A stretch of DNA of 32,000 nucleotides from contig OZ246396.1 in NCBI GenBank assembly GCA_965230905.1, positions 30,001 through 62,000 of the forward strand, given 5' to 3'. Below are positions 4,994-31,421 of this stretch, piece after piece; position 1 is the stretch's first letter, and each line of letters starts with the position of its first letter. The notes below the pieces were generated by a model that saw only the letters and a list, made by a program, of their open reading frames with translations, did no database searches and was not told the origin of the DNA. Both the position numbers and the translations under genes were made by a program. This DNA is from Candidatus Saccharimonadota bacterium (GTDB lineage Bacteria; Patescibacteriota; Gracilibacteria; UBA1369; 2-02-FULL-48-14).

Positions 4994-5851
4994 ATGGCTC
5001 AAGTGCTCGATGGACGCGTGGTTTCTGACTCTCTGCTCGCTGAGGTGAGCGCTGAAATTGAGATGCTAAAAGCGAAAGGGATTGAGCCAAAATTGGTGGT
5101 GATTGTGGTGGGAGACGATCCGGCTAGTCAGGTTTACGTGGGTAAAAAAGAAGAAGCGTGTAAAAAAGTAGGCATGCTCAGCGAACGAGTGGTCCTGCCA
5201 GCTACGGCGACGCAGGGTCAGCTTTTGGAGAAAATCGAGGAATTGAATAAAGATGCTTCAGTAACGGGGATGATTGTGCAACTCCCCCTCCCTGATGGGA
5301 TGGAGGCGCCGGTGGTGATTAAAGCGATTGATCCGTACAAAGACGTGGATGGATTCCATGCCTACAACGTGGGGAAAATGTTTTTGAGCAAAGATTTTGA
5401 GGATTTGGCGCCGTGCACACCCAAGGGAATCACTAAGATTTTGGACTTTTATAAGATTGATGTGAAGGGCATGGACTGCGTGGTGATTGGCCGCAGCAAC
5501 ATTGTGGGCAAACCCATGACGGCGATGCTTCTCAACCGAGATGCCACCGTGACCTGCTGCCACAGCCGAACAAAAAACTTACTCAAGTATACGAGGGAGG
5601 CGGATTTGGTGGTGGTGGCCGTTGGTAAGGCGAGATTTTTGACAGCGGATATGGTTAAAGAGGGTGCGATTGTGATTGATGTGGGAATGCACCGCGGTGA
5701 GGATGGAAAACTCTGCGGAGATGCGGATTTGGAAGGTATGAAGGAAAAAGTTTCGGCGTACACTCCCGTGCCTGGCGGCGTGGGGCCCATGACCGTGGCC
5801 TGCCTTCTGATGAACACCGTGACAGCGGCGAAGAAACAAGCTAAACTCTAA
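4994..5851 (+). CDS. folD: bifunctional methylenetetrahydrofolate dehydrogenase/cyclohydrolase
   Basis: Start moved to ATG 4994 (MAQVLDGR...). VGDDPASQVYVGKK, VQLPLP, CTPKG, GRSNIVGKP and PVPGGVGPMT are FolD hallmarks. Confidence 0.95.
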   Translation: MAQVLDGRVVSDSLLAEVSAEIEMLKAKGIEPKLVVIVVGDDPASQVYVGKKEEACKKVGMLSERVVLPATATQGQLLEKIEELNKDASVTGMIVQLPLPDGMEAPVVIKAIDPYKDVDGFHAYNVGKMFLSKDFEDLAPCTPKGITKILDFYKIDVKGMDCVVIGRSNIVGKPMTAMLLNRDATVTCCHSRTKNLLKYTREADLVVVAVGKARFLTADMVKEGAIVIDVGMHRGEDGKLCGDADLEGMKEKVSAYTPVPGGVGPMTVACLLMNTVTAAKKQAKL

Positions 5852-8711: not shown

Positions 8712-9512
8712 TCAGCTTATTTTCTCTAAGATGTAAGCTTGTTCGTCAAACGGAGCCCTTTCTTTTTCTGGAAAGTCTATCTCTCTAAAATTTGCCTGAA
8801 ATTTATCCTTCTTTAAGACAGTCAAAACCTCCGAGTTGACTCCAAAAACCATAGATCCCACCCCAAGGGCACGATTTATTTCAACAGCTAGTTGGTGATG
8901 ATATCTAGAGCTACGAAGCACCCACGTATCAAAGCCGTTCACTCCAATATGGACCGGACTGCCATCGGGAATTCTTGATAGTGCTTCCAAATTATCTGCC
9001 TTAACATGAATCACCCTTCTCCCATCCCCTTCTCGGCGAGGATAAAATTGTTCATGACCGTTGTATCGCAATGGCTTGAAAAGTTCTGACTGTCGATCTT
9101 CAGTCCATGTATTTCTATTTTCACCAAGGTAACGAAACAGATCCACACCAATCAAAATGCGAGCCCTAGCACTCTCACCAATTGATTTTGTTCCCGTTGA
9201 GATTGGACCGCTGCTCAAGTCTATAAGCACGCCTCCTTCTATTTTCTCAATAAGGTACTGTAAGGCAGGTGGAAGTTTATCTCTTTCCTTTCGAACCTGT
9301 TTACCTTTTTCGTTATCCCAATCAATACCGAGGTGTCTTATCCATTCATTCCCATATTCTGAGTCTAAAGCACTCGAATCTCTTGCAAGTTCACACGTCG
9401 CCTTATGAACTGAATCTTTTGTTTCTTTAGAGACCAAACCAAGTTCTCGAGAAAAAATTTCCGCAAGAATAGAAGCGTTTTCTTTATCAAAATCTTTGAG
9501 ATTTTCTGACAT
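8712..9512 (-). CDS. hypothetical protein, possibly a degenerate class I methyltransferase-like fold
   Basis: 266-aa ORF in an AT-rich patch. GGVLIDLSSGP...ARILIGVDL...IHVKADNLEALSRIPDGSPVHIGVNGFD loosely follows SAM-MTase motif order I, II and post-II, but the glycine loop is degenerate. Confidence 0.5.
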   Translation of the reverse strand: MSENLKDFDKENASILAEIFSRELGLVSKETKDSVHKATCELARDSSALDSEYGNEWIRHLGIDWDNEKGKQVRKERDKLPPALQYLIEKIEGGVLIDLSSGPISTGTKSIGESARARILIGVDLFRYLGENRNTWTEDRQSELFKPLRYNGHEQFYPRREGDGRRVIHVKADNLEALSRIPDGSPVHIGVNGFDTWVLRSSRYHHQLAVEINRALGVGSMVFGVNSEVLTVLKKDKFQANFREIDFPEKERAPFDEQAYILEKIS

Positions 9513-9524
9513 AATGGGACTTGA

Positions 9525-10214
9525 TTAAGAAATTCGACTGAGCTTATCGTCGATGCAGTGGAAGCCTCGAACAACGGCACCATCGGTCCACTTTGGGAAA
9601 GCGGGTTGTTCCACAAGACAGTTGCGGACAATACTAGCGCCGCTGGTATAAATAAATTGTGATGGAATTGCACTACTCGCCCCAACCTGGATAAAAAAAT
9701 CTACCGAGCTCACGGGACCGGACTTCAAAGCTTCCCGAGCGGCCAAATCGATGTAGGCAGCCGCTAAACCTTTACAGATAGCCCGCCCCCCTTCTTTGTA
9801 AGCGGCACACACTCCTGCTTCGGTCAAAACCTCATTTTTATGCAGATTCATACTGTGTTCCACCAGTGTTCTTTCGGGAATCACTTTTAAGACACTGGAG
9901 TTCAGATTGTGCCTAGCCAAAGTTTCCATAATTGGAGCTCTTACGGGAGCGATCAAATCTTCCACATTCAGGATATCGGCATTTTCCCTTCGGCCTGTGA
10001 GCACTCGTTTACCTCCAATGTGATCGATTGCCGTAAACAGATGGGCGGGCAAACCTTGCTCGATCACTTGCTTGTAGACCTCACACGCTCGATTCAAAGC
10101 CTCTTCCTGAAAATCAAAGTTTTTTATTTTTCCGCCATTGTGGCCTTTTTTTGACTCTGTGAGGGCCTTATGGTTTCCTCCAAGGATGACGATGGAAGGC
10201 TTTAGACTGTTCAT
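9525..10214 (-). CDS. hypothetical protein
   Basis: ORF 9525-10238, with ATG 10214 as the likely start (MNSLKPSIVILGG...). It lies 12 nt upstream of the 8712-9512 gene on the same strand. No family recognised. Confidence 0.5.
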   Translation of the reverse strand: MNSLKPSIVILGGNHKALTESKKGHNGGKIKNFDFQEEALNRACEVYKQVIEQGLPAHLFTAIDHIGGKRVLTGRRENADILNVEDLIAPVRAPIMETLARHNLNSSVLKVIPERTLVEHSMNLHKNEVLTEAGVCAAYKEGGRAICKGLAAAYIDLAAREALKSGPVSSVDFFIQVGASSAIPSQFIYTSGASIVRNCLVEQPAFPKWTDGAVVRGFHCIDDKLSRIS

Positions 10215-10279
10215 AAGAGAGGTTATTGAACAGTGCAATATTACTGCTTATTGTCAAATATGTCAGTAAGACTAGCTTC

Positions 10280-10308
10280 TGGACAGTCATTCAAATCTGT
10301 TATATACT
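10280..10308 (+). promoter_or_regulatory. candidate promoter of the TrmB-like regulator gene
   Basis: TGGACA (10280-10285), a 17-nt spacer, then TATACT (10303-10308), 21 nt upstream of ATG 10330. Confidence 0.35.
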
Positions 10309-10318
10309 GTTGTCAGTA
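10305..10318. promoter_or_regulatory. palindromic operator-like site TACTG-N4-CAGTA
   Basis: tactgttgtcagta overlaps the -10 element and the expected TSS. A second TACTG...CAGTA pair lies at 10242-10246 and 10264-10268 in the same divergent intergenic region. Confidence 0.3.
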
Positions 10319-10329
10319 CTATTAGCTCT

Positions 10330-11094
10330 ATGGACCTTCCCAAGATTCTTCAAGGCATCGGACTCAGCGAAAAGGAATCTCGTGTGTACCTGGAATTGCT
10401 GAGCCTAAAAGAGGCTCTACCTAGCCAAATTTCCCGAAAAGCGGGTGTGAAGCGACCAACCACCTACTTGATACTGGAACAGCTGGCAAAAAAAGGTCTG
10501 GTGAGCCAGGTGAAGAAAGGTCGTTATGTTTATTTTCAGCCGGTGAATCCACATTCTCTGCTGGAAGATCAGTATGTACGCTTCAATAATCTGGAGAAGG
10601 CCATTCCTGAGCTGCTTTCCTTGCACCAGCAGTTTTCAGTTCAACCACAGGTGTCCTTTTTTCAAGGAAAAGAAGGAATCATACGGATCATGGAAGACAC
10701 GCTCAAAGCCTCCACCGAGTTGCTTTGTTGGGCAGATGTGAGCTTGGCGACTCAAACCCTTTTAAAGGCCTACTACCCCACTTACATTGCAAAAAAAGTG
10801 AAGCGAAAGCTATGGCTACGCGGTATCTTTTCTTACGACAAAGCAGCGCTGGAAGTTAAAACACGCGGAGAGAAGGAACTGCGTGAAGTATATTTAATTC
10901 CGAAAGAAGAGTTTCCATTTAAGAACGAAATCAATATTTACGACGACAAGGTCGCGATAGTTTCCCACGCCGATCAAATGGGAGTGATCATTCAAAATAA
11001 AAACATTGCTGACACACAGCGTTCCATTTTTAATTTCGCGTTTAAGTACGCAAAGCTTGCGGAGGCGGAACTTTTGAACGACCTTGAAAAATAG
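10330..11094 (+). CDS. TrmB-family transcriptional regulator
   Basis: The N-terminal winged HTH LGLSEKESRVYLELLSLKEALPSQISRKAGVKRPTTYLILEQLAKKGLV is typical of TrmB-like regulators. A C-terminal effector-type domain follows. Confidence 0.8.
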   Translation: MDLPKILQGIGLSEKESRVYLELLSLKEALPSQISRKAGVKRPTTYLILEQLAKKGLVSQVKKGRYVYFQPVNPHSLLEDQYVRFNNLEKAIPELLSLHQQFSVQPQVSFFQGKEGIIRIMEDTLKASTELLCWADVSLATQTLLKAYYPTYIAKKVKRKLWLRGIFSYDKAALEVKTRGEKELREVYLIPKEEFPFKNEINIYDDKVAIVSHADQMGVIIQNKNIADTQRSIFNFAFKYAKLAEAELLNDLEK

Positions 11095-11220
11095 GTTTTT
11101 AAGAACTTTTGCACATTTGCACCGTGAGAATTTTTCGTTTGTCATAAAAAATTCAGAATTATTTAAGAAATTTTTCAGGTTTTTGTCAGAACGGCCCAGT
11201 AAAGTTTTGGTTGTTCAGAG

Positions 11221-11292
11221 GGGCCCAGTCGTTGGCGACCTCAACAGGACTGTCACCCGTTGAGCCGGGTTCAACCCCCGGTGGGTCCACCA
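11221..11292 (+). ncRNA. tRNA-like element (tmRNA tRNA-like-domain style) with G3:U70 and encoded ACCA
   Basis: Folds by eye into a 4-way junction. Acceptor stem 11221-11227 with 11282-11288, including G11223.U11286. Arm 1 gtcg/cgac (11228-11239). Arm 2 of 9 bp with one A.C mismatch and the 7-nt loop ACUGUCA (11240-11264). T-arm ccggg-uucaacc-cccgg (11265-11281). Then A-CCA (11289-11292). Confidence 0.45.
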
Positions 11293-11308
11293 CTGAACAA
11301 GAGACAGC

Positions 11309-11339
11309 AAAAAGCCCTTCCATTATGGAGGGGCTTTTT
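11309..11339. terminator. bidirectional rho-independent terminator
   Basis: 10-bp stem 11313-11322 with 11326-11335 (one G.U pair) and a 3-nt loop. An A-run lies upstream and a T-run downstream. It can serve both the tRNA-like gene (+) and the maf-ytxH-DUF1543 operon (-). Confidence 0.6.
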
Positions 11340-11349
11340 GAATCGATCT

Positions 11350-11364
11350 CTCAACAGGACTGTC
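11350..11364 (+). repeat. exact 15-nt direct repeat of the tRNA-like element long arm
   Basis: ctcaacaggactgtc occurs at 11240-11254, inside the element, and again at 11350-11364, between the terminator and the stop of the convergent gene. Confidence 0.8.
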
Positions 11365-11376
11365 TAAAGTATTTTA

Positions 11377-11904
11377 TCATTTCAGCGGTATATACGCAAT
11401 CGTGAGCACGTTTTCTTTTGGCGTGGCGGAAGGTTTTAGTTCAATGCCCTTCATGGTTTCGCTGACACATAAAACGTCATCAATACCTTCATCGAGGGCG
11501 TGTTTGTCGTCGATGTGCGGCGCCGCGATGGGATCGAGCACGCGCCCTGGCTCTGTGAAGAAGGGGTCTTGTTTGGCTTTGGCTTTGGCGCTTGGTAAGT
11601 CGGGCGCAGTGAGCAGAATGCATTTATGAACTTCGCCGAATTGGCCTTCGCGGTAAGCGCCTAAATTCATGAACCAAAGTTTAAGTTCGGTAGGCATTGG
11701 CGCGGGCGAATGTGTGACACACACTTCGTAGCCGTCGACTTCGTTCACTTCCAAACACGTGTCAATATGCTGGGCGTAGGGGCGGGCGGCTTTGATCAAC
11801 TTAAAAGCCTCTTCTTTCGAAGAGGCAATTGAGAATACCGTGTCATGACCTTCGGTGTTCATCCCTTCCAGGCGAAACCCGATTTGGATCATGTAAAGTT
11901 TCAT
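11377..11904 (-). CDS. DUF1543-like protein (two tandem repeats)
   Basis: 175 aa. MKLYMIQIGFRLEGMNTEGHDTVF and LWFMNLGAYREGQFGEVHKCILL resemble the duplicated DUF1543 pattern (LY..LGG.....ElHD), as recalled from memory. Confidence 0.5.
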   Translation of the reverse strand: MKLYMIQIGFRLEGMNTEGHDTVFSIASSKEEAFKLIKAARPYAQHIDTCLEVNEVDGYEVCVTHSPAPMPTELKLWFMNLGAYREGQFGEVHKCILLTAPDLPSAKAKAKQDPFFTEPGRVLDPIAAPHIDDKHALDEGIDDVLCVSETMKGIELKPSATPKENVLTIAYIPLK

Positions 11905-15245: not shown

Positions 15246-15322
15246 TGGTGGACCCGATCGGAATCGAACCGACGACCTCTTCCATGCCATGGAAGCGCTC
15301 TAGCCAACTGAGCTACGGGCCC
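15246..15322 (-). tRNA. tRNA-Ala (anticodon GGC), CCA encoded
   Basis: The reverse complement is gggcccgtagctcagttggctagagcgcttccatggcatggaagaggtcgtcggttcgattccgatcgggtccacca. It forms a full cloverleaf with G3:U70 and the anticodon loop AU-GGC-AU. Confidence 0.95.
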
Positions 15323-18169: not shown

Positions 18170-18246
18170 TGGTGGGCCCGGCTGGACTTGAACCAGCGAC
18201 CAAGAAGTTATGAGCCTCCTGCTCTGACCAACTGAGCTACGGGCCC
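18170..18246 (-). tRNA. tRNA with CAU anticodon (elongator Met, or Ile2 if lysidine-modified), CCA encoded
   Basis: The reverse complement is gggcccgtagctcagttggtcagagcaggaggctcataacttcttggtcgctggttcaagtccagccgggcccacca. The cloverleaf is complete. G1-C72 pairs and no 3xGC anticodon stem is present, so it is not an initiator. Confidence 0.9.
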
Positions 18247-25031: not shown

Positions 25032-25736
25032 TTAATTCCACCCCTCGTTTTCCAGCGCACTTTTGGCGGCGGACTGTTCGGCTTCTTGTTTGGAAGGACC
25101 GTGGCCTTCGCCGGCGAGTTTTTTGCCGAAGTAGATGCCCATGACGAATTTTTTGTCGTGGTCGGGGCCTTCCTCGCTGAGGAGTTCGTAGGTAGGAGTG
25201 ACGTTGAGTTTATCCTGGCAGAGTTCTTGCACGCGGGATTTTGCATCTACGTTGAGACCCTTGGCGATGATGTCGTCGAGCATGCGCACGATGTGTGTGA
25301 GGATGAATTGGTTGGCGACTTCAAAACCTTGATCCAGGAAAATCGCGCCGATGAGCGCTTCGCAGGTATTGGCTAAAATGTATTCTTTTTCGCGGCCGCC
25401 AGAGAGGTCTTCCCCACGGCTGAGGAGCAAAAATTGTCCGAGCTCGAGGTTTTTGGAAACCTTGGCGAGGTTTTTCCCTTTCACCAGCGCGCTGCGCCAG
25501 TTGGTGAGCTGACCCTCGGGCTGAGAGGGATAATTGTGGTACAAAAATTGTGTCACAGAAAGTTCCAAAACCGCGTCTCCCAGGAATTCCAGGCGCTCGT
25601 TGTACTCTTTTTCTTCGGTGTGCTCGTTGATAAAAGACTTGTGTACAAAAGCCAGCGTGAGTAGATCTTTATTCTTAAACTCGAGTTCAATTTTCTTTTC
25701 GAGTTCGGCGATGTTCTTAATTTTTGCGGTCATCAT
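25032..25736 (-). CDS. rnc: ribonuclease III
   Basis: The RNase III signature NERLEFLGDAVLEL is present, plus a C-terminal dsRBD (GPDHDKKF...GEGHGPSKQEAEQSAA). Confidence 0.93.
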   Translation of the reverse strand: MMTAKIKNIAELEKKIELEFKNKDLLTLAFVHKSFINEHTEEKEYNERLEFLGDAVLELSVTQFLYHNYPSQPEGQLTNWRSALVKGKNLAKVSKNLELGQFLLLSRGEDLSGGREKEYILANTCEALIGAIFLDQGFEVANQFILTHIVRMLDDIIAKGLNVDAKSRVQELCQDKLNVTPTYELLSEEGPDHDKKFVMGIYFGKKLAGEGHGPSKQEAEQSAAKSALENEGWN

Positions 25737-29666: not shown

Positions 29667-31421
29667 ATGTCCGAAAACATCAAGAAAATTTCCAAAAAGA
29701 AAATCCTCTTCGTCCAGATTGACGAGGAGCTCACCAGTATTTTTCAGCGCATCGAAAAGCTGCCGTACAAGGAAGTTTATTTGGTGGTGCCCAAGCGCGC
29801 GGTGCTGCTACAGAGCATTGTAAACTTGAAGATTTTGAAGCAGAAGATGGTGGAGATTGAGAAGGACATCGCCGTGATCACGAATGATTTGAATGGGATG
29901 AAACTGGCGCATCAAGCGGAGATCCGGGTGTTTGATCACTGGAATATTGATGAGAACGCCGAAGGTGAAAAATCAAAAAACGACCGTGACCCCGAGACGG
30001 CCCTGCTCAAACCCATTGCCGCCGCGCAAAACGAAGTGGAGGACGAACTGCCTTCCCGTCTGCCCAAGAAAAAATCGTCCATCTTTGAGGTGGTGCGAAA
30101 CATCAAAGGAAAAGAAAAAGGATTTTCGCTGCGCTCGTACTTGGCGGATCTCAAGCGAAATCGACTTCAAGCCCGCCCTCTGAATTTGTACCTCACTCCC
30201 GGAAAGAAACGTTGGATTTTTGGACTGCTCGGTTCCAGTTTGGTGCTGTTCTTCTTCATCGCCTATGTGGCGCTGCCCGGAGCCACCATTGAAATTGAAC
30301 CGGCTTCTAATGTGCTGACCAAAGCCGTGAATGTCACTTTGGAGCCCAGCCCCAGCGATCCGCTGAGCCTCAAGTCCTATGACATTGGGACGGAGGTGGA
30401 ATACACGCTCAGCCATCCGGCCACGGGACTGATTACGGACGACAGCAGCAACGCATCTGGGAATCTGACCATTATAAACATCAGTGGCGTAGACCGCCCG
30501 CTGGTGAAAGAAACGCGTTTCCAAACCGAGGACGGCGTTGTGTTCCGTCTGCAGGAGGAAGTGACGGTGCCCGCCGGCAATTCCACCAAGCCGGGGACCA
30601 CGGTGGCACGTGTGGTGGCGGATGCGTTGGACGCGAACGGTGTGGCCGTGGGAGAACGTGGAAACATTGGCGCGAGCAAATTTTTTCTACCGGGATTGCG
30701 TGAAGACACCCGCGATGAACTCTACGGCGAAAGCTACGACGCCATGACGGGCGGAGCCACCGTTTCCCGTGTGCAAGTCACCGAAGACGACCTCATCGCC
30801 GCTCAAGTGCAACTGGAAGAAGAGCTGAAAGGAAAAGTGATTTCTGCGCTGCGCAAAGAAGTGCTGACGCAGTCCAATACCCTGGGCGTAAGTTTGAAAC
30901 TTTTGGAGGTTTCGGAGGCGCTGGAATATGGCCCTGCGCTCATCGACCTTCCCTACAGTTTGGTGGGCACGGAACAAAGCAGTTTTGATGTGACGGGAAC
31001 CATGACCATTTCGGGCATCGCCTACAACCAGGAAGATTTGTTCAGCCTTTTGAAGGCAGAGATTGTGAGCACCAAAACGCCCGGCAAACTGCTGATTTCT
31101 GTGGACGAAAATTCCATGAGCCTGCAGATTCTGGAAGTGATCAATAATGCGTACAAAATCACCGCGCAAGTGCAAGGTATTGAAGAATACGAAATCGACC
31201 CTGAGTTGGAGGGTGGCAACAAGCTCGCTGAAAAAATCAAAGAGCACATCGCAGGCAAGTCCATTGAAGAAGCCAAGGCTTACATCCAAAATCTACCGGA
31301 AGTGAACAGTGTGGAGATCAAGGTGTGGCCCGTGTGGTCCCCCACTATTCCGAGTTTGTCGGAGAATATTAAGATCAAGTCGCTATCGGACGCTGAGGGA
31401 GCGGTTGAAGAAGAGCTTTAA
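29667..31421 (+). CDS. large single-pass membrane protein, function unknown (possibly baseplate J-like extracellular region)
   Basis: 584 aa. Cytoplasmic N-domain, a TM helix (WIFGLLGSSLVLFFFIAYVAL), then a beta-rich region beginning ATIEIEP. The resemblance to baseplate J/gp47-annotated proteins is from memory only. Confidence 0.6.
   Translation: MSENIKKISKKKILFVQIDEELTSIFQRIEKLPYKEVYLVVPKRAVLLQSIVNLKILKQKMVEIEKDIAVITNDLNGMKLAHQAEIRVFDHWNIDENAEGEKSKNDRDPETALLKPIAAAQNEVEDELPSRLPKKKSSIFEVVRNIKGKEKGFSLRSYLADLKRNRLQARPLNLYLTPGKKRWIFGLLGSSLVLFFFIAYVALPGATIEIEPASNVLTKAVNVTLEPSPSDPLSLKSYDIGTEVEYTLSHPATGLITDDSSNASGNLTIINISGVDRPLVKETRFQTEDGVVFRLQEEVTVPAGNSTKPGTTVARVVADALDANGVAVGERGNIGASKFFLPGLREDTRDELYGESYDAMTGGATVSRVQVTEDDLIAAQVQLEEELKGKVISALRKEVLTQSNTLGVSLKLLEVSEALEYGPALIDLPYSLVGTEQSSFDVTGTMTISGIAYNQEDLFSLLKAEIVSTKTPGKLLISVDENSMSLQILEVINNAYKITAQVQGIEEYEIDPELEGGNKLAEKIKEHIAGKSIEEAKAYIQNLPEVNSVEIKVWPVWSPTIPSLSENIKIKSLSDAEGAVEEEL

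Follow-up and report, generated by a model that had tools for sequence, protein, structure and literature searches.

A conserved tRNA-shaped RNA gene with a predicted co-varying antisense partner in genomes of Candidate Phyla Radiation bacteria

The locus and its tRNA-shaped RNA

The stretch of DNA considered here (32,000 nucleotides, positions 30,001–62,000 of contig OZ246396.1 from a Candidatus Saccharimonadota bacterium, hereafter the window) carries next to its DUF1543 gene (11377–11904, minus strand) two small non-coding genes. One of them specifies a 72-nt tRNA-shaped RNA on the plus strand (11221–11292), while the other, located in the 3' untranslated region of the DUF1543 gene, is read from the minus strand and gives a partner RNA of about 57 nt. 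An earlier note on this DNA described the first gene as tRNA-like, with an alanine-type acceptor and some traits of transfer-messenger RNA (tmRNA). What it missed is the decisive feature of the locus, a co-varying antisense partner gene next door, which makes the long arm of the tRNA-shaped molecule an RNA–RNA recognition hairpin.

The 72 nt are laid out as GGGCCCA, GUCG-UUGG-CGAC, CUCAACAGG-ACUGUCA-CCCGUUGAG, CCGGG-UUCAACC-CCCGG, UGGGUCC and A-CCA, where the strands CUCAACAGG/CCCGUUGAG form a long arm of 9 bp with one A.C mismatch near the loop. Their minimum free energy fold is the four-way junction without junction nucleotides that had been described before (-32.5 kcal/mol). The acceptor stem coincides with that of the resident tRNA-Ala (15246–15322) at six of seven pairs, and the alanine acceptor set of its 7-bp helix is composed of G3:U70, G2:C71, A73 and CCA; the alanine-type character claimed for it, with G3:U70 shared by both stems, proved to be invariant in the family alignment discussed below. 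The 7-bp acceptor, the 5-bp T stem with a UUCRA loop, the discriminator and CCA, expected of tRNA, are all present. The features that fail are the connectors 8–9 and 26 and the variable loop, all of them absent, together with C33 and C37 in the loop, and 37 nt separate the acceptor and T arms. Since the window loop has C33 and a pyrimidine occupies position 37 in all family members (loop consensus N-U-U-N-N-C-A), this RNA is not expected to decode, which agrees with the previous opinion that the loop is not a normal anticodon loop. The YUNR motif of a U-turn is found in the Paceibacterota-type loops CUUGACA and UUUGACA, while loops of other Peribacteria do not fit it strictly.

Standard tools do not call this segment an ordinary tRNA. 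ARAGORN registered in the window only tRNA-Ala and tRNA-Met (18170–18246) and no tmRNA, and Rfam at gathering score returned the same two true tRNAs, leaving 11221–11292 unmatched. At E<=10 the sole meaningful and best Rfam match of the segment was mascRNA/menRNA (RF01684; 34.7 bits compared with the gathering score of 42.5, E 2e-5), while the tRNA model RF00005 gave no match even at this threshold, the tmRNA model RF00023 did not match it either, tmRNA_permuted scored 9.9 bits against its gathering score of 47, and the C4 model was absent among the matches. The relatives behave similarly: ARAGORN calls one of 23 other family members (L157, as tRNA-Ser; loci are designated by L and a number), and a comparison of 14 related loci with Rfam gave true tRNAs only, so that none of the 14 tested members reached a gathering score. 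Rfam 15 has no family for the unit of tRNA-shaped RNA and partner, and full-text literature searches gave no description of such a pair.

Orthologous loci were obtained by protein synteny around TrmB (L001/L082 and L083) or DUF1543 (L266, L267 and L269), and further lineages came, among the matches listed, from a metagenome pattern scan and from covariance model R1, which assigns 81.8 bits to 11221–11292, 55–85 bits to family members and at most 45 bits to true tRNAs. The 24 homologues originate from Peribacteria, from Candidatus Paceibacterota (the assignment of L130) and from metagenome contigs without assignment, and their alignment was fitted to the covariance model itself. Standard pairs occupy in it 92.7% of pair cells versus 66.3% after shuffling, with none of 500 shuffles reaching the observed value, and sliding of the pairing partners leaves 39–56% of cells paired. 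Changes on both sides were found at 18 of 25 pairs; the nine pairs of the long arm and the four of the small hairpin belong here without exception. The comparison of orthologues that the earlier note had proposed as a check therefore revealed covariation in all four helices. The invariant pairs are G1-C72, G2-C71, G3.U70 and three inner pairs of the T stem; G3:U70 occurs in every sequence (24 of 24), and acceptor pairs 5–7 covary. In five lineages that are independent of the retrieval pattern (L001, L083, L067, L266 and L267, obtained by gene synteny or by the covariance model; L067 does not even fit the pattern) G3:U70 and A73 are all kept, and pairs 4–7 vary.

Conservation of UGG in the small-hairpin loop and of UUCRA in the T loop means that the D/T elbow, which is the contact of RNase P, the CCA-adding enzyme and alanyl-tRNA synthetase (AlaRS), is preserved, while the G.U pairs identify the plus strand as the RNA strand of this gene. 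The long arm is hypervariable except for the U-U...C-A frame of its loop, and a mismatch or bulge near the loop, such as A.C in the window, is usual in the family and is resolved in the intermolecular duplex. With helices conserved in this manner, 11221–11292 is a genuine conserved tRNA-like gene and not an ordinary tRNA.

The partner gene and its co-variation with the long arm

The 15 nt CTCAACAGGACTGTC that form the 5' strand of the long arm together with loop nucleotides 32–37 are repeated exactly just beyond the terminator (Table 1), although even with two mismatches allowed about 0.04 matches are expected in 32 kb. Read from the minus strand, this copy becomes the first 15 nt of the partner, whose start at about G11364 and end near 11308 are predicted from the promoter, the complementarity at +1 and the terminator. 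Its first 8 nt are predicted to be mostly unpaired. Because the partner promoter overlaps the last codons of DUF1543, the 3' end of the DUF1543 mRNA would carry the same site. No conserved reading frame or stop was found in the partner when six orthologues were inspected by hand, and in Peribacteria it consists of little beyond the seed and the terminator.

The signals of this gene recur from lineage to lineage. Promoter elements -35/-10 with at least 8 of 12 consensus positions were found in 20 of 20 lineages and with at least 9 in 18 of them, compared with 2.4% of shuffles. The distance from the end of the -10 element to the first complementary base is 5–9 nt with a mode of 6 in these 20 lineages, and a terminator comes 10–60 nt further on. 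Three further members found by DUF1543 synteny (L266, L267 and L269) have the same layout. The possibility that the loop motif TTGACA/TTGTCA and its copy imitate a -35 element was rejected, since spacing to any -10 element beside the copy is inconsistent (4–14 nt) and the real promoter, situated on the opposite side, reads into the copy.

Co-variation of the arm with the partner extends over 23 lineages and four gene arrangements: convergent, divergent, tandem upstream and tandem downstream. Where the arms of orthologues differ, the downstream copies differ alike (CTCAACAGGATTGTC, CGATAGGGCTGTC, TCAGGACTGTCACC, CCTCAGCGGAATTGTC, C(T/C)GAGACTCGTC and CTAGAGTTAACACCT), and in distant lineages the copy is found upstream in the same sense or as a reverse complement upstream or downstream. 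In all four arrangements a sigma70-type promoter is so oriented that its transcript is complementary to the arm. An exact match to the arm of at least 10 nt within 300 nt on either side was registered for 18 of 51 distinct compact elements, whereas after shuffling of labels such matches appeared in 3 of 247 cases and none was as long as 11 nt. Thus, the complementarity is locus-specific.

The duplexes start at partner nucleotide +1 (-3 to 0) and span 11–23 bp, with 15 bp in the window. Differences within the duplex core are represented by about 10 G.U wobbles, plus 4 more in L266, L267 and L269, and the sole true mismatch is C.A in L269, while only 2 of 12 possible directed differences, i.e. 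one in six at random, would yield a wobble. Such a predominance of wobbles points to selection on RNA pairing rather than on DNA identity and would be unexpected in DNA repeats, operators and attachment sites. In one instance all three strands changed together, so that CUCAACAGG/CCCGUUGAG and partner ..GUUGAG of the window became CUUACCAGG/CCCGGUGAG and ..GGUGAG in L267. In 19 of 19 pairs the predicted stability of the heterodimer exceeds that of the separate folds by 11–29 kcal/mol.

Several partners have additional resemblance to the tRNA-shaped RNA. In L067 (~5600–5625) a second patch of the partner, UGGUGGAGG, matches the 3' end CCUCCACCA with CCA included; a patch of about 15 nt antisense to the T arm was noticed in the upstream region of L154, and the partners of L148 and L192 seem to copy the entire 5' half in antisense orientation, with divergence. 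These similarities suggest that partners may have arisen through inverted duplication.

Table 1. Features of the two-gene locus in the window, and GIY-YIG open reading frames beside the RNA pair at other loci (numbered within the locus named)
Feature	Position	Strand	Remarks
tRNA-shaped RNA	11221..11292	+	fold, covariance model R1, covariation in four helices
Acceptor stem	11221-27 with 11282-88	+	includes G3:U70
Small 'D' hairpin	11228-39	+	UUGG loop
Long arm	11240-64	+	loop ACUGUCA at 11249-55
T arm	11265-81	+	
A73	11289	+	
CCA	11290-92	+	
Partner small RNA, ~57 nt	11308..11364	-	5'-GACAGUCCUGUUGAG AGAUCGAUUC, then terminator hairpin and U-run
Partner seed, 15 nt	11350..11364	-	perfect complement of 11240-11254
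Partner -10 TAAAAT	11371..11376	-	6 nt ahead of G11364
Partner -35 TTGCGT	11394..11399	-	17-nt spacer; within last DUF1543 codons
Four TTCAGRA-like boxes (TTCAGAA, TTAAGAA, TTCAGGT, TGTCAGA)	11152..11190	+	10-11 nt phasing
Candidate -10 TAAAGT of the tRNA-like gene	11200..11205	+	weak; read by eye, no score in simple scan
Leader strand UUGUUCAG	11211..11218	+	inverted repeat I3 and precursor fold
Trailer strand CUGAACAA of leader/trailer helix	11293..11300	+	
Trailer motif GAGACAG	11301..11307	+	complements arm loop (CUGUC); same as 5' end of partner; significance uncertain
Bidirectional intrinsic terminator	11308..11340	both	inverted repeat I1, 16-nt arms, 94% complementary, A-run and T-run
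GIY-YIG open reading frame, L001	4757-5010		
GIY-YIG open reading frame, L082	2207-2452		
GIY-YIG open reading frame, L266	3328-3567		
GIY-YIG open reading frame, L269	3328-3573		

Flanking signals

The terminator lying 16 nt past CCA is common to the tRNA-like and the partner transcripts and is conserved in orthologues; announced already in the earlier note, it was recovered by both inverted-repeat and terminator scans. On the other side the tRNA-like gene is preceded by an array of TTCAGRA-like boxes, three to four per array, that run into TTGTCA just upstream of the gene. Phased boxes are also found upstream in L200, L129, L083 and L267, and in the form of TTTAGGA/TTTAAGA in distant L067, while the two true tRNA genes of the window have none upstream. 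Judging from their similarity to direct-repeat sites of activators, the boxes probably make a regulator-binding or promoter array. No good -35 element was found for the tRNA-like gene. In the predicted fold of the precursor a leader/trailer helix lengthens the acceptor stem, and this GUUCAG/CUGAAC helix is kept, with G.U changes, in all Peribacteria orthologues.

Other details of the flanks deserve mention. The trailer motif varies together with the loop in L001 (AGACGA / UCGUC) and could mask it in the precursor. At the far upstream edge of the intergenic region the window has a TGCAC-N4-6-TGCAC motif (11108–11125, TTTTGCACATTTGCAC), conserved in L129, L267 and L083 and kept in L267 despite the lack of TrmB there. 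A partial direct repeat (11186–11200 and 11215–11229, TCAGAACGGCCCAGT / TCAGAGGGGCCCAGT) places an extra copy of the leader end and of the acceptor 5' strand inside the promoter spacer, and L083 has a similar echo, AGGGCT.

A role of the partner as an attenuator leader was considered and abandoned: no antiterminator pairing was seen, inspection by eye of the window, L138 and L148 revealed no co-directional gene past its terminator, and in the tandem-upstream arrangement the partner is followed only by the tRNA-like gene, apparently equipped with its own promoter.

Genomic context and distribution

The TrmB-like and DUF1543 proteins that flank the unit assign the window, part of a contig of about 1.3 Mb, to Candidatus Peribacteria/Peregrinibacteria (CPR, Patescibacteria). 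In the window the pair resides among ordinary chromosomal genes for L1, Tmk, FolD, PurF, PurD, TrmB, DUF1543, YtxH, Maf, the Suf system, RsmB/F, RNase III (25032–25736) and FtsA. The RNA unit was found in at least two classes of the Candidate Phyla Radiation (CPR), among unrelated housekeeping neighbourhoods. A conserved protein partner was looked for and not found among the neighbours (ArgRS, TspO, PurH, S9, FBPase, PNPase, SMC, radical SAM, TrmB, DUF1543). TrmB adjoins the unit in three lineages and is missing in L267 and L269, which keep it; DUF1543 is adjacent in the window, L082, L266, L267 and L269. None of the neighbourhoods examined had a Fem, MprF or SmpB gene linked to the unit.

The unit is distributed patchily. 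It is absent at seven Paceibacterota loci that are syntenic with L130 by rpsI, and there is no element at the corresponding locus of L260–262 and L263–265, where DUF1543 is 77–78% identical to that of the window; L266, L267 and L269, with DUF1543 identity of 67–68%, keep the unit with or without TrmB. Presence and absence among close relatives thus make it behave as an accessory gain-and-loss module, and such patchiness is easier to reconcile with a regulatory or toxin-antitoxin-like pair than with a core component of translation. The segment between purD and DUF1543 (8712–11376 in the window; two hypothetical genes, TrmB and the RNA pair) is an indel among close relatives: in L260–262 purD directly abuts DUF1543, and in L267 the block is composed of the RNA pair only.

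Four loci of Table 1, the window not being among them, have beside the RNA pair a small GIY-YIG open reading frame of about 80 aa, homing-endonuclease-like. Another recurrent object in soil metagenomes is an element of ~82 nt (L094, L099, L107, L120, L123, L126, L127, L162, L175, L179, L190 and L197), which combines a conserved non-tRNA 5' part (GGGCGYTGTAAGTTGTTG.ATTTCTTAAT...) with an apparent 3' half of tRNA-Ala(GGC) (..AUGGCAUGGAAGAGGUCGUCGGUUCGAUCCCGACCAGGUCCACCA) and may represent either the remnant of an integration site or one more RNA derived from tRNA.

Comparison with known systems

In common with the tRNA-like domain of tmRNA, the RNA studied here possesses G3:U70, a T arm and A73-CCA and has no anticodon. 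Unlike tmRNA, it is devoid of an mRNA-like domain, pseudoknots and the P2 helix joining the 5' and 3' halves, and its acceptor closes within 72 nt. The tmRNA-style flavour perceived in the earlier note did not survive, since neither tmRNA models nor ARAGORN recognize it, pseudoknots are missing, and the T loop with ACCA is generic to tRNA-Ala. The same note was right that no tag is encoded: there is no frame with a resume codon and a stop, and the partner has no conserved open reading frame either. A split tmRNA with the partner as its message was rejected, as UAA in the terminator loop of the window and L200 does not occur in L129, L083 and L131, and the longer partners of L138 and L145 have no stop at all.

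A compact cloverleaf in which junction nucleotides are lacking, the D hairpin is short and the T arm is standard is also a property of mascRNA/menRNA (RF01684). That molecule, however, is cut from the 3' end of vertebrate long non-coding RNAs (MALAT1/NEAT1-type) and has neither the alanine set nor an antisense partner, while the context here is a bacterial chromosome, so mascRNA/menRNA is a structural analogue and not a homologue. Structurally closest are compact 72-nt tRNA-Ala(UGC) genes in large phage-type tRNA arrays of viral and metagenome contigs (L212, L224, L206, L223, L226, L109, L195 and L124), which score 54–58 bits with R1 and have the anticodon at position 30. They share with our RNA the acceptor type, GU at 8–9, the 4-bp D hairpin (with a UGGG loop), the extended anticodon arm and the T arm, but keep the anticodon loop CUUGCAA and short connectors. 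ARAGORN recognizes them as tRNA-Ala, and no copy of a partner lies close to them; on viral contigs only such decoding genes were found, and no partner copies. It is plausible that they are structural relatives or ancestors.

Antisense pairs acting from a loop to a 5' end are known as IS10 RNA-OUT/RNA-IN, hok/Sok and CopA/CopT. As in IS10-type pairs, a free 5' end would attack a hairpin loop and pair down the 5' side of a stem with a mismatch or bulge in its upper part, and the complementarity between loop and 5' end is kept in arm and partner by compensatory changes. Unlike these pairs, which overlap as cis-antisense transcripts and control an mRNA, the two genes described here do not overlap, both are non-coding, and the hairpin belongs to a tRNA mimic as one of its arms. 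In phage RNAs of the C4/CI type the recognition sequences match complementary sites a short distance away within one locus and vary from one heteroimmune relative to another. These small antisense RNAs, C4 of phages P1/P7 and CI of the satellite phage P4, are matured by RNase P, are hairpin-like and have no equivalent of the T loop (PMC5499578). The tRNA-shaped RNA differs from them by its full T arm, D/T elbow, G3:U70, A73 and CCA; their targets are mRNAs of the same operon, while the counterpart in our case is a tiny RNA transcribed separately from a promoter of its own, and instead of a phage immunity locus the unit of the window sits amid housekeeping genes without phage context. By analogy, its mechanism would most resemble both loop-to-5'-end antisense pairs and the RNase P-processed C4/CI.

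RNA-only toxin-antitoxin or sRNA/anti-sRNA (small RNA) pairs are exemplified by type VIII CreT/CreA and by SdsR/RyeA. Common to them and the present unit are two linked non-coding genes, one of which has a near-consensus promoter, an exclusive co-evolving specificity and patchy presence; CreA, however, needs Cascade. We know of no RNA-only toxin-antitoxin or anti-sRNA pair that uses a tRNA mimic. By its features the tRNA-shaped RNA falls outside tRNA, tmRNA, mascRNA and C4/CI.

Proposed mechanism and alternative explanations

Taken together, these observations lead us to propose a two-RNA unit, in which a tRNA mimic (11221–11292, plus strand) is captured or switched by a dedicated anti-RNA (11364 to ~11308, minus strand). 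The probability of this reading can be roughly estimated as 0.55. The mimic would be transcribed with a short leader pairing the trailer, and in the predicted precursor this leader/trailer helix (11211-18 with 11293-11300) is combined with the tRNA shape and with the terminator. The intact acceptor/T minihelix, the elbow and the encoded CCA suggest that maturation proceeds as in tRNA, i.e. by RNase P cleavage at G1 with subsequent 3' trimming or CCA repair. AlaRS requires little besides G3:U70 in the acceptor helix, and preservation of the minihelix, the elbow and the alanine identity set makes the mimic probably a substrate of this enzyme. The 9-bp 'anticodon' arm, which is hypervariable and matched by the partner only, may be read as a recognition handle, a hairpin for antisense recognition whose weak spot is close to the loop. 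The 5' end of the partner would nucleate on this loop, zip down the 5' strand of the arm and displace the 3' strand, opening the arm. The partner would then serve as an anti-RNA that captures the mimic, refolds it or marks it for RNase III, a plausible executioner encoded in the same window, and would set the amount of free mimic in an RNA/anti-RNA, sponge-like or toxin-antitoxin-like pair. Since the Peribacteria partner contains little beyond seed and terminator and could hardly have a function other than binding of the mimic, we take the partner as the antagonist and the mimic as the effector. Candidate actions of the free mimic are titration of AlaRS, EF-Tu or RNase P, non-ribosomal donation of alanine, or something else. 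A more specific version, in which an alanine-accepting mimic has its point of action in the translation machinery (at AlaRS, EF-Tu, the ribosome or an aminoacyl-transferase) and is gated by the co-evolving anti-RNA, is tentative, and we regard it as possible with the odds rather against it.

A number of circumstances weigh against this proposal. Both RNAs are predicted from sequence alone, and the antagonistic role of the partner, with the mimic as the effector, is putative. The folding energy of the single sequence is unremarkable (z = -1.61; 13 of 200 shuffles fold equally well), and the window loop ACUGUCA, unlike the Paceibacterota-type CUUGACA, does not strictly fit the YUNR U-turn motif. 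Five high-scoring relatives have no partner within 400 nt, although in two of them the flanks are incomplete, and no conserved protein neighbour pointing to a pathway was found in the lineages examined. Moreover, the retrieval pattern fixed GGGC...GUCCACC for most members, which makes the census incomplete and biased, so that the universality of G3:U70 rests on about five pattern-independent lineages.

The main rival, which we nevertheless consider unlikely, reverses the roles and makes the tRNA-shaped RNA the regulator, an RNase P-matured antisense RNA akin to P1 C4 and P4 CI, whose target is any transcript with the complementary site, including here the 3' end of the convergent DUF1543 mRNA, and whose tRNA shape serves only maturation or stability. 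C4 and CI are indeed natural RNase P substrates (PMC5499578), and Peribacteria have the complementary site after the stop codon of DUF1543 and ahead of the terminator used by both transcripts. Against it, the partner of the three remaining arrangements is short and free-standing, with its own promoter and no linked open reading frame, processing by itself would not require G3:U70 and A73 to persist, and there is no Rfam C4 match. Somewhat less credible still is an alanine-charged effector, akin to what the earlier note had considered, that the partner merely tunes, be it a minimal tmRNA-like rescue RNA or a non-decoding donor of alanine for cell wall or lipids, comparable with the non-proteinogenic tRNA-Gly of Staphylococcus. 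Conservation of the alanine identity set, elbow and CCA speaks for it, as does the fact that compact 72-nt tRNA-Ala(UGC) of phage arrays are called tRNAs, so that such a fold suits the tRNA machinery. It is opposed by the failure of tmRNA models, by the lack of a tag frame, of pseudoknots and of a conserved open reading frame or stop in the partner, by the absence of linked Fem, MprF and SmpB and by close relatives living without the unit, and it leaves unexplained why a dedicated antisense RNA co-evolves with the arm. We give equally little credit to the assumption that the partner is a working sRNA with mRNA targets elsewhere, for which the tRNA-shaped RNA is a stable sponge or decoy, as the tRNA-spacer-derived 3'ETS-leuZ is. 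The strong promoter of the partner and its accessible seed at the extreme 5' end would suit this role, but the seed drifts freely between close lineages, as in a pair closed on itself and unlike an mRNA-bound one, has no other match in the 32-kb window, and belongs in Peribacteria to an RNA with little beyond it and the terminator.

Explanations that dispense with RNA pairing are far weaker. Genes of tRNA and tmRNA are classic integration sites, the unit is polymorphic in presence, and GIY-YIG open reading frames accompany it in L001, L082, L266 and L269, so the repeat might be a feature of DNA, such as an integrase attachment site, a target-site duplication or a protein operator duplicated in the gene. 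We hold this to be very improbable, and integration site and target-site duplication were rejected on the same grounds: the copies are only ~100–150 bp apart and occur in both orientations, a promoter is always placed so that transcription of the complementary strand begins with the first base of the repeat, nearly every difference between the copies is a transition compatible with a wobble, and 15 nt are too short for gene conversion to explain their concerted change. As for a decayed tRNA-Ala or ssrA remnant, which the earlier note kept in reserve, or a chance fold, the modest folding z-score of -1.61 and an acceptor stem close to that of the resident tRNA-Ala might seem to favour them, but compensatory changes in all four helices across two CPR classes, together with conserved flanking signals, refute decay and allow us to exclude a pseudogene or a chance fold.

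Implications

Few tRNA mimics have a known job (tmRNA, viral tRNA-like structures, mascRNA and YrlA), and to our knowledge none has its own antisense RNA. The two-RNA unit would represent a tRNA-Ala-derived RNA that lost decoding but kept features read by the processing and charging enzymes, with the former anticodon arm turned into a programmable handle matched to an adjacent mini-gene. As such it combines known kinds, a tRNA mimic and an antisense pair, with a substantial chance of categorical novelty if the mimic is a charged effector. About 23 natural compensatory variants make the scheme directly testable and offer a ready set of orthogonal RNA–RNA pairs. If the tRNA shape serves only maturation or stability, the principle of phage C4/CI would be extended to cellular genomes in a more tRNA-like form. 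Should the mimic turn out to be charged, with an effect on translation or a role as alanine donor elsewhere, parts of translation would have given rise to a new layer of control. CPR bacteria are ultra-small and have tiny genomes, for which, as far as we know, almost no regulatory RNAs have been described; an alanine-accepting mimic gated by its anti-RNA, if true, would be an undescribed all-RNA switch or toxin-antitoxin-like module, built from a tRNA and scattered in their genomes.

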